Origin: a bacterium BMS3Abin02
GTDB taxonomy: Bacteria; Actinomycetota; Acidimicrobiia; Spongiisociales; UBA4744
Direction: 5' to 3'
Length of the DNA: 64,000 nucleotides
Assembly (NCBI GenBank): GCA_002897675.1
Contig: BDSU01000045.1
Location: forward strand, 23,282-87,281
The stretch's first letter is position 1. Each line of letters starts with the position of its first letter. The notes below the pieces were generated by a model. It searched no databases. It saw nothing but the letters and a program-made list of their open reading frames with translations, and was not told where the DNA came from. Positions 3,701 through 5,467 of this stretch are shown here, one piece after another. Made by a program: the position numbers and the translations under genes.

Positions 3701-5467
3701 CTACTCACCGGGGTCACGAATGATTGCCGGAATCGTTGCGGCGAGGATCTTGAGGTCGAGCAGGAGCGTCCGGCTGCGGACGTACTCCGTGTCGTAGCGG
3801 TTGCGTTGCTCGGGTGAGATGGCATCTCTGCCGTGCACTTGCGCCAGCCCCGTGATCCCGGGCTTTACGATTCGCCGCGTGGGGTCGCCGAGCAGCTCCG
3901 ATTCTGCAGGGACCAGCGGTCGTGGGCCGACGAGCGACATCTCTCCCCGGATGACATTCCAGAGGTTTGGAAGCTCGTCGAGGGAGCCCTTGCGAAGCAG
4001 CCTGCCGATCGGGGTTACGCGAGGGTCGTTGTCCATTTTGAGACGATTCCGCTGCGGTTGGTCTCTGAGCTGCTCGAGATGCTCGAGATGGACGGTCTCG
4101 TCGGCGTTGTGTTGCATCGTGCGGAACTTCAACATGGCGAACTGCTTCCCGTTCAGGCCGACTCGCGTCTGGTGGAAGAACACCGGTCCGCGCGAGTTGA
4201 GCTTCACGGCGATCACCACGGCGCCCATGGCCGGCAACAGGACGAGCAGCAGTGCGGTCCCGATGACGATGTCGAGGGTGCGTTTCAGTGTCGTGTAGAC
4301 GATGGGGCTCGAAAACCGTGCCGCCATCGCTGCGAGCGTGAACACTGCCGCTCCTTCTCCGGCGAGAAACGCGACTCCGATGCGGAAGTCCGGCTCACCC
4401 GAGGCCAGGAGCAGTCCGGCCGCCGCCGCGACCAGGCCGATGACCCAGGCGAGCGTGAGCTTTCCGGTCTCCCCCCTGGCGACCAGGACCTGCCCGAGAA
4501 ACAGCGAGGCGCCCGCGAGGGTAACCCCGGCAGCGGCGAGCATCGCGAAGGCAGGCTCCGGCCTGAAGCCGATGCCGAAGAGCGCCTCGACGATGGGCGG
4601 TCCAAGCCAGAACCCCAAGAACCCTGCGGGAACGGCGGTGATGACGCCCGAAGCGAGGAGAAGGCCCACCCAGCGGGTGAGCTGTGCGTCTTCGCCACGT
4701 TGGGCCATCACCGTGAACGGAGGCAGCACTCTGGCGATCAGGTTGTATCCGAAGGTGAGCGGCGCTCGCGCCAGGGTCATGGTGACGAAGACAGTGGAGA
4801 TCAGCGCTGCCGTCGCGCCGAGGAAACCTGCGACGAGCGGGCCTGCGAGCAGAAGCACTTGTGAGGTGGCGGCAGCGAGGATGAACGTGACGAGGAATCG
4901 GGCCGGCTCCGTTCTCTGATCGGGGATGGAGGTGATGCGTAGCGAGGTGGGCCACATGAGGATCACGAGGGGTCCCACCGCAAGAGCGGCAGCGAAGCCG
5001 AGCGCACTGTCGGTCACGATTGCCACAATCACTGCAACGCTCACGCGCAGGATGGCCGCTCCGCCGCTTGCCTCTCCGTAGGAGCGAAAGCGGCGACTTC
5101 CTGCGAGTGTTCCGCGCCCGTGCACGAACAACGCGTGGGTCATCACCGTGACTGCGGCGAGGTACGCGAACCGGACGTCGCCGGCGAACAGCCGATCCTT
5201 GCCCCAGATGCCTACGGCGAAGGCGAGTGCAGCCGTCAGGACAACGGTGATCCGGCCGGTTCGGGCCGTCGCTCTGGTCAGCCCGCCCCGGATGGTGATC
5301 GCTCGGATCACGAGTTGCTCGACGGGGAGCAGCACGATGATGAATGTCAGGAAATGGATGGTGAGCAGCGACCCGATCGGCGCGAACTGCTCGGGTCCCA
5401 GAACGCGGCCACCGATGAGCTGGTAGACGTAGCTGCCGACACCGGCGATGAGTGTTCCGGTGACCAT
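3701..5467 (-). CDS. fusion protein: polytopic polysaccharide-biosynthesis/flippase-like membrane domain + C-terminal bacterial sugar transferase (polyprenyl-phosphate glycosyl-1-phosphate transferase) domain
   Basis: N-terminal ~420 aa has >10 predicted TM helices ([40 protein letters not shown]...). C-terminal ~200 aa matches WbaP/EpsB-type sugar transferase ([20 protein letters not shown]...[30 protein letters not shown]...[22 protein letters not shown]...ITGLAQV). Start placed at the ATG at 5467. Confidence 0.7.
   Translation of the reverse strand: [588 protein letters not shown]

Follow-up and report, generated by a model that had tools for sequence, protein, structure and literature searches.

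A predicted MOP-type flippase domain fused to a phosphoglycosyl transferase in Acidimicrobiia, with a possible role in wall glycan attachment

Introduction

The pneumococcal cps system (with CpsA, CpsE, and Wzx) and the teichoic acid system (with TagO and TagTUV) are LytR-CpsA-Psr (LCP)-dependent pathways for the synthesis of wall glycopolymers. Monotopic phosphoglycosyl transferases (PGTs) make polyprenyl-diphosphate-linked sugars (polyprenyl-PP-sugars), Wzx and MurJ flip polyprenyl-PP-linked glycans, and LCP enzymes transfer glycans carried in this way to peptidoglycan. To our knowledge, the Wzx proteins described so far are polypeptides in their own right. The gene described here is located in a stretch of 64,000 nt (the whole of which is referred to as the window) from contig BDSU01000045.1 of the bacterium BMS3Abin02, a member of the Acidimicrobiia, and differs from Wzx genes in that its product carries a priming transferase covalently attached to a membrane domain with a MOP (MurJ/Wzx/MATE) transporter fold. 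It is considered rather likely that the role of this protein is to prime a wall glycan and to flip it for use by the LCP protein encoded next to it.

Large PGTs of the WbaP type hold a bundle of four transmembrane (TM) helices and a conserved domain of unknown function (DUF; PF13727) ahead of the catalytic core (PMC10942596). Fusions of monotopic PGTs to other enzymes of their pathways are a known theme, and the partners described are sugar-modifying enzymes and glycosyltransferases (PMC11626204, PMC10942596). In comparison with WbaP, WcaJ, and CpsE (PDB 8T53), a complete 12-TM MOP domain replaces here both the 4-TM bundle and the DUF. A catalogue of bifunctional PGT fusions, in which the partners include regulatory domains and polytopic PGTs, has reportedly been compiled by O'Toole, Imperiali and Allen (PNAS 2021). 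No fusion of a flippase to a PGT was described in the literature searched, a scope outside which the survey of O'Toole et al. 2021 lies, and the literature search on the wall or LCP biology of Acidimicrobiia returned nothing.

With respect to flippases, TM1-2 and TM7-8 of WzxE enclose a central cavity to which TM4 and TM10 contribute in part. Conserved arginine pairs (R44/R239 and R143/R282) line this positively charged lumen. An essential arginine-rich tail, located right after TM12 at the cytoplasmic entrance, has been proposed to make the first capture of the pyrophosphate, and to date there is neither a substrate-bound structure of a Wzx protein nor an in vitro assay (PMC11706664). Two questions are open for Wzx-type flippases, namely the way in which the lipid-linked substrate is found and selected and the possible physical association of the flippase with the enzymes that build this substrate. 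A transferase and a flippase in a single chain would fix the stoichiometry and the geometry of both steps and would make the substrate in place, and the fusion, for which a high-confidence AlphaFold model is available, could offer a convenient system in which to study the hand-off structurally and biochemically.

Conservation of the fusion

The preliminary description of this DNA, made from its letters and open reading frames (ORFs), had claimed a single polypeptide with no stop between the membrane and the transferase domains. This is borne out by the ORF list and the translation, which show on the minus strand one open frame without internal stops from a TTG at 5608 to the stop codon at 3701-3703. 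The 22-residue transferase motif quoted in that description is found at residues 496-517 (residue numbers refer throughout to the 588-aa product counted from the ATG at 5467). The G+C content at third codon positions of the fusion gene is 0.79, which is typical for genes of this ~64% GC window.

Three marine metagenome assemblies, independent of one another, contain contigs that encode an identical 588-aa protein. The best 120 database matches, with lengths of 584-674 aa, cover 97-100% of the query with identities of 45-100%, and full-length homologues with 45-78% identity form more than 100 clusters. In addition, a scan that used one genome per species and a narrow alignment, and that is consequently biased to the fused clade, recovered 80 loci (cited below by L numbers), almost all of them labelled Acidimicrobiia or Actinomycetota. 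When these loci were searched with separate hidden Markov models for the two halves, both were found in one ORF in 61 of the 80, and the N-terminal domain appeared alone in 14; one locus was cut by the contig end. In the remaining four (L012, L041, L066, and L077), which come from metagenome-assembled genomes, the halves lie in different frames, in ORFs that overlap or adjoin each other; frameshifts in the assemblies are the probable cause, and pseudogenes or split genes a less likely one. Several paralogues are present in single genomes (L036 and L080; L039 and L050; L048 and L075).

A frameshift or fused-ORF artefact, which the preliminary description had listed as a point to be checked, would mean that an assembly error has joined two adjacent genes. 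The four loci with the halves in different frames, as well as the unfused adjacent pairs that occur in related genomes, could be taken in its favor. However, the same single ORF has been assembled three times independently and recurs in most of the species-level loci, full-length homologues are numerous, and the length of the linker is constrained, as the conserved A374 of TM12 and the conserved K395 are separated by 18-28 residues in all 65 family members. Moreover, in the unfused pairs the transferase gene precedes the MOP gene, an order opposite to that of the fusion, and because of this reversal the fusion cannot be attributed to a lost stop codon. Taken together, these data make an artefact extremely improbable.

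The transferase domain

Bac_transf (PF02397) is the sole Pfam domain found in the 588-aa protein, with an E value of 1.8e-61, a score of 207.2 bits against a cut-off of 27, and a match that extends over profile positions 1-178 of 179, so the polyprenyl-phosphate sugar-1-phosphate transferase domain of the preliminary description has been correctly assigned. Among PDB sequences, the C-terminal 203 residues are similar to WbaP (E 4.9e-36) and to PglC (E 8.1e-33), and the domain has the fold of the PglC/WbaP catalytic core. The NCBIfam models for WbaP, WcaJ, and exopolysaccharide (EPS) transferases (TIGR03022, TIGR03023, and TIGR03025) are matched in their last ~190 positions, below cut-off.

The re-entrant membrane element is modelled as two helices (388-409 and 411-424), with a K395-R396-x-x-D399 motif ahead of the break at Pro412. 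The features that characterize the monotopic PGT superfamily, an Asp-Glu dyad, a PRP motif, and a Pro in the re-entrant helix, are all found, and none of the residues K395, R396, D399, P412, D497, E498, P515, R516, and P517 varies among 65 homologues. Since both the catalytic and the re-entrant-helix residues are invariant, this part of the protein is probably a complete and active monotopic PGT.

The membrane domain

Hydropathy and two AlphaFold models place 12 TM helices ahead of residue 384. The preliminary description had proposed a flippase-like membrane domain with ~12 TM helices and a length of ~420 aa; the number of helices agrees with these results, while the length has to be corrected to about 385 aa. 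The full-length model (pLDDT 88.9, pTM 0.81) shows in this region a complete MOP fold of two lobes with six helices each, modelled with very high confidence. When the fold of the N-terminal domain was compared with known structures, the scores were 23.6 for human MATE1, 22.1 for MurJ 5T77 (361 of 390 residues aligned), 19.3 for E. coli MurJ, and 14.8 for WzxE, and the next, unrelated fold scored 8.7; Foldseek with the full model retrieved MurJ (E 6.6e-6) and WzxE (E 5.8e-5). The flippase-like character of the domain is therefore supported, at the level of its MOP fold, by structure comparison. That it could be merely an extended WbaP-type membrane/DUF domain, the outcome considered adverse in the preliminary description, does not hold, as no PF13727 match was detected at E <= 1 and the fold is different.

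Sequence searches contributed little to this identification. The Polysacc_synt and MATE matches that had been expected from Pfam are absent from the fusion protein, neither PF03023 (MurJ) nor PF01554 (MatE) was matched, and a family profile searched against all PDB sequences returned just a spurious match to FieF (E 0.005). Pfam, NCBIfam, and PDB profiles were thus uninformative, and the informative evidence came from the fold comparison and from weak PF01943 matches in the relatives of the domain. From WzxE (PDB 9G95/9G9P), one of the Wzx-type flippases (PF01943/PF13440, COG2244), the domain differs by an identity of only ~15% and by the lack of a significant Pfam or NCBIfam match. From MurJ (PDB 5T77, 6CC4), it differs in having 12 TM helices instead of 14, of which TM13-14 form in MurJ a groove for the lipid tail, in lacking a PF03023 match, and in belonging to a family with several paralogues per genome. 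According to the models, the re-entrant helix of the transferase does not mimic TM13-14, because the full-length model adds only 11-16 residues to those of the N-terminal domain that can be aligned to MurJ, and the Z score falls.

Arg/Lys clusters are found in the loops after TM2, 4, 6, 8, 10, and 12. Because of these clusters, an N-in/C-in topology is predicted, with both ends of the MOP domain in the cytoplasm and, consequently, with the transferase also on the cytoplasmic side, as its chemistry requires. Nine polar or charged residues within TM1, 2, 4, 7, and 8 (Y13, Q16, T36, H38, E50, Q51, H111, Q203, and S224) are invariant in the 65 homologues. Among 87 family members, both stand-alone and fused, R234 does not vary, and at least 90% keep R21 and R118. 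The topology places R21 at the outer end of TM1, R118 at the cytoplasmic end of TM4, and R234 at that of TM8. The mean identity to the query is 51% for the N-terminal domain and 54% for the catalytic domain. As the former is as conserved as the latter, and holds invariant polar residues inside its TM helices, a working transporter appears more likely than an anchor.

Stand-alone relatives and their transferase neighbors

A phmmer search with residues 1-390 against a library clustered at 50% identity returned 737 cluster representatives, 110 of them at E <= 1e-30, most of which are 380-460 aa long and match over residues 1-385. Hence, the N-terminal domain mostly exists as an independent protein of ~400 aa. 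The only recurrent Pfam match among these stand-alone relatives is PF01943 (Polysacc_synt), which appears in six of the 87 analyzed and is weak (best E 9.3e-7; 29.0 bits versus a cut-off of 28.2); ~15 of 120 relatives of one member have a precomputed PF01943 match. Many relatives are named 'O-antigen/teichoic acid export membrane protein' by JGI.

The genetic context of the stand-alone proteins is informative, with priming transferases of three architectures as neighbors. A Bac_transf or Glycos_transf_4 gene is adjacent in 10 of the 14 scanned stand-alone loci and in all three further contexts. In L084 and L086, the first 4 nt of the MOP gene are shared with the end of the Bac_transf gene immediately upstream, which encodes 405-427 aa, and in L085 the MOP gene begins 11 nt past the end of a Bac_transf gene for 426 aa. 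The pairs of L084-L086 lie near genes for GT1 and GT2 glycosyltransferases, SpoIID/SLH-domain proteins, and a class A penicillin-binding protein with PASTA domains. In the partner PGTs, 2-3 N-terminal TM helices (checked in L071 and L084) and a region of ~130 aa without Pfam match are predicted. In L070-L074, a convergent Bac_transf gene for 425 aa directly adjoins the MOP gene, and in L007 a Bac_transf gene for 202 aa is located upstream of the MOP gene, with an LCP gene divergent upstream. A different kind of transferase is present in L054, L062, L064, and L069, where the MOP gene is the first of an operon with a polytopic Glycos_transf_4 (PF00953) transferase, followed by a convergent LCP gene; a gene for a nucleoside-diphosphate-sugar (NDP-sugar) epimerase/dehydratase stands between the operon and the LCP gene in L054 (3306-8072) and L069. 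The three functions of the window locus are thus found here with a priming enzyme of unrelated origin. The genes of L054 were assigned by Pfam, and those of L062, L064, and L069 by BLAST clustering.

The family thus recurs beside priming transferases of two unrelated superfamilies and has been fused to one of them in one clade, which provides strong associative evidence that the N-terminal domain acts on the lipid-linked product of the transferase. These proteins define a large MOP subfamily (hundreds of clusters at 50% identity) that is missed by the current Pfam and NCBIfam models. For the fused members, the best 120 database matches carry the Bac_transf annotation alone, and the public annotation is just that of a sugar transferase, with names such as 'sugar transferase [Acidimicrobiia bacterium]'. 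Because the curated domain models miss the N-terminal domain, surveys based on architecture would probably have classed the fusions as PGTs with an unknown N-terminal region. With the fusion described here, one more class joins the catalogued bifunctional monotopic PGTs.

The LCP partner

The location of the fusion gene between genes for an LCP ligase and a PQQ beta-propeller, as given in the preliminary description, is confirmed. The LCP protein of the window, called as 480 aa in public assemblies, has homologues in 60 of the 80 loci, and an LCP gene is directly adjacent in 38 of the 42 fusion loci that have at least 1.6 kb on both sides. Three arrangements have been observed: upstream and divergent (35 loci), downstream and convergent (two loci; the arrangement seen in the window and its closest relatives), and downstream on the same strand (one locus). 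The survival of this adjacency through rearrangement argues for selection acting on it. When all the neighboring genes were clustered, no other broadly conserved partner was found; the recurrent neighbors are housekeeping genes, encoding a CoA-binding protein, ABC/oligopeptide transport, an M20 peptidase, and a PspC-type two-component system.

The earlier suggestion that the locus may couple initiation, export, and attachment of a wall glycopolymer is supported by the fold, by conservation, and by the linkage of the genes, and the coupling with the LCP protein by its adjacency in three arrangements. The beta-propeller cannot be considered part of the unit. This PQQ/BamB-like protein, encoded divergently from the fusion gene, was examined as a candidate component of the system and rejected, since its homologues are restricted to the four closest loci (L001, L002, L005, and L006).

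The LCP and fusion genes are separated by 264 bp in the window (3437-3700) and by ~1 kb in the closest relatives (L003-L005). No terminator-like hairpin, Rfam match, or conserved ORF was detected in the gap of the window, and scans for promoters and terminators, Rfam families, and tRNAs around the gene and across the window yielded nothing relevant.

Proposed function

The fusion is most likely a bifunctional inner-membrane protein, the N-terminal domain of which, as judged from its modelled fold, would belong to the MOP superfamily as a Wzx-like but divergent member. After synthesis of the polyprenyl-PP-sugar by the transferase, the N-terminal domain would carry this product across the membrane, either as such or extended to a short glycan, and on the outer side the neighboring LCP protein would transfer it to peptidoglycan or to another wall acceptor. 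The tether of ~10 residues at the cytoplasmic end of TM12 could allow the product to be delivered at the entrance of the flippase, given that the transferase sits where WzxE carries its essential arginine-rich tail and takes the place of this tail. By analogy, the parallels with WzxE, in the arginines as well as in the position of the tail, would support a working flippase with hand-off of the product.

As in LCP-dependent Gram-positive pathways such as that of pneumococcal cps, where CpsE, Wzx, and CpsA are linked, a priming transferase, a MOP flippase, and an LCP protein are associated at this locus. In contrast with those pathways, only two genes are involved here, and priming and the predicted flipping would reside in one polypeptide. 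The locus points to a start-flip-attach pathway of a very compact form in an uncultured marine actinobacterium of the Acidimicrobiia, and provides a first lead on wall-glycopolymer biosynthesis in this class, which is abundant in marine environments and soil and almost uncultured.

Several observations weigh against the role proposed for the fusion. The flipping, transferase, and ligase activities are all predictions. Residues 1-383 have no Pfam or NCBIfam match at E <= 1, and a search of the 87 relatives against NCBIfam gave no matches either. The equivalence of R21, R118, and R234 with functional arginines of WzxE or MurJ is a putative one. Genes for glycosyltransferases, polymerases, or chain-length proteins are found neither in the 64-kb window nor as conserved elements across the 80 loci, in which the system also differs from the LCP-dependent pathways mentioned above. 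Wzx proteins normally prefer completed repeat units, and a tethered flippase could flip the glycan prematurely. Finally, the LCP gene is missing beside the fusion gene in the paralogous clade of L026, L033, and L050 (fusion at ~7908-9836), which is flanked by dapA, an RNase J gene, and ftsK and, in the opposite direction, by a pabB-like gene for a chorismate-binding/aminotransferase IV protein. An LCP-linked copy (L039) and one of these LCP-less copies (L050) coexist in genome CAWGCJ01.

Other explanations of the 12-TM domain have to be considered. It could transport nothing and act as an anchor or as an oligomerization or regulatory platform, replacing the 4-TM bundle and DUF of WbaP-type enzymes. 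Large monotopic PGTs do bear non-catalytic accessory domains, both membrane and soluble, at the N terminus (PMC10942596), and the lack of a significant match of this domain to the curated flippase families would fit such a role. Nevertheless, an anchor of a transferase does not need to exist on its own, whereas this domain is mostly found as a solo protein, and its complete two-lobe fold, the invariant polar and charged residues inside its TM helices, and a degree of conservation equal to that of the catalytic domain speak against a passive platform, which is regarded as unlikely. Another explanation is that the domain transports something else, either as a MATE-like, ion-coupled exporter of a small molecule or as a MurJ-like flippase of lipid II, and that the fusion coordinates two processes. 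The high structural scores obtained with MATE1 and MurJ do not decide between these activities, and the evidence from other sources goes in the opposite direction: the linkage is to LCP genes and to priming transferases of two unrelated superfamilies, Polysacc_synt/Wzx is the sole sequence-family signal, the 14 helices of MurJ are not reached, and several paralogues per genome fit a pathway-specific Wzx rather than a housekeeping MurJ. A different cargo is therefore held to be just as improbable as an anchor.

A more extreme version of the proposed function of the fusion as a priming and flipping protein would make it, together with the LCP protein, a self-sufficient two-gene system for wall decoration. 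The transferase would make a polyprenyl-PP-monosaccharide, the sugar carrier would pass to the fused flippase without ever leaving the protein and with no cytoplasmic glycosyltransferase step, and the LCP protein would attach the sugar-phosphate to peptidoglycan. This version is rather doubtful. If it were true, it would be the first example in nature of a priming transferase that channels its product to a MOP flippase covalently joined to it, and would also provide a Wzx-type flippase with the unelaborated priming product as its natural substrate. Both domains are of well-known kinds, and a new principle would be involved only if the monosaccharide carrier proved to be channeled directly and without elaboration.

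Features of the locus

The coordinates of the fusion gene, its domains and motifs, and the genes related to it are listed in Table 1.

Table 1. Coordinates of the fusion gene, of its parts, and of associated genes (window coordinates unless a locus is named).
Feature	Coordinates	Strand	Evidence
Fusion gene, 588 aa from the ATG at 5467	3701..5467	-	ORF list, translation, coordinate check
Probable true 5' end, 19 in-frame codons from the GTG at 5524-5522, encoding VTHQRASNLRYLTRDGTAA	5468..5524	-	Conservation
N-terminal 12-TM domain, MOP (MurJ/Wzx/MATE) transporter fold, residues 1-383	4319..5467	-	Hydropathy, models
Short cytoplasmic tether between TM12 and the transferase, residues 384-394	4286..4318	-	Conserved spacing, pLDDT dip to 74
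Re-entrant membrane helix, residues 388-424, break at Pro412	4196..4306	-	Model and conservation
Monotopic PGT catalytic domain (Bac_transf), residues 395-583	3719..4285	-	Pfam
Asp497-Glu498 catalytic dyad	3974..3979	-	Invariant in 65 sequences; aligned with WbaP SLDELP
Pro515-Arg516-Pro517 motif	3917..3925	-	Invariant in 65 sequences; aligned with WbaP LVGPRP
LCP (LytR-CpsA-Psr) protein, convergent with the fusion	1994..3436 (start alternatively 1880)	+	Pfam PF03816, E 1.3e-31
PQQ/BamB-like beta-propeller, divergent from the fusion	5657..7192 (start alternatively 5630)	+	
Unfused PGT-MOP pairs	L084 5787-8275; L085 5710-8221; L086 5721-8239		Gene order PGT, MOP

The GTG at 5524 is probably the real start of the gene, which would then encode 607 aa, and the public gene calls of 588 aa would begin too late. 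This start is favored because the 19 upstream codons encode a conserved SNLR...DGT motif and because the position of Met1 is occupied by Ile or Val in the more distant family members. The motif is also present in close homologues, and its DGT part in at least 90% of the 65 aligned family members. No ribosome-binding site is evident for the GTG.

Other genes in the neighborhood

Beyond the beta-propeller gene, the window encodes a PspC-domain membrane protein (7721-8875, minus strand) and a 74-aa ORF (7500-7724, minus strand), followed on the plus strand by a PspC/LiaF-TM histidine kinase (8995-10218) and a LuxR-type response regulator (10215-10847). The region 7500-10847 resembles a module of the cell-envelope-stress type, and homologues of it are found upstream of the fusion gene in ~15 of the 80 loci. 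On the LCP side, just past the left edge of the window, L081 (14748-19016) holds a cluster for a MoxR-type AAA ATPase, a DUF58 protein, and a DUF4129 protein, with no evident link to the fusion.

Farther away, the minus-strand region 43137-49455 includes the gene of a molybdopterin oxidoreductase of 1052 aa (44332-47490), with genes for NrfD-type membrane and 4Fe-4S subunits on its flanks. MobB, a radical-SAM protein for the Mo cofactor, and a two-component system are also encoded near the oxidoreductase. The complex is of a respiratory type and unrelated to the fusion.

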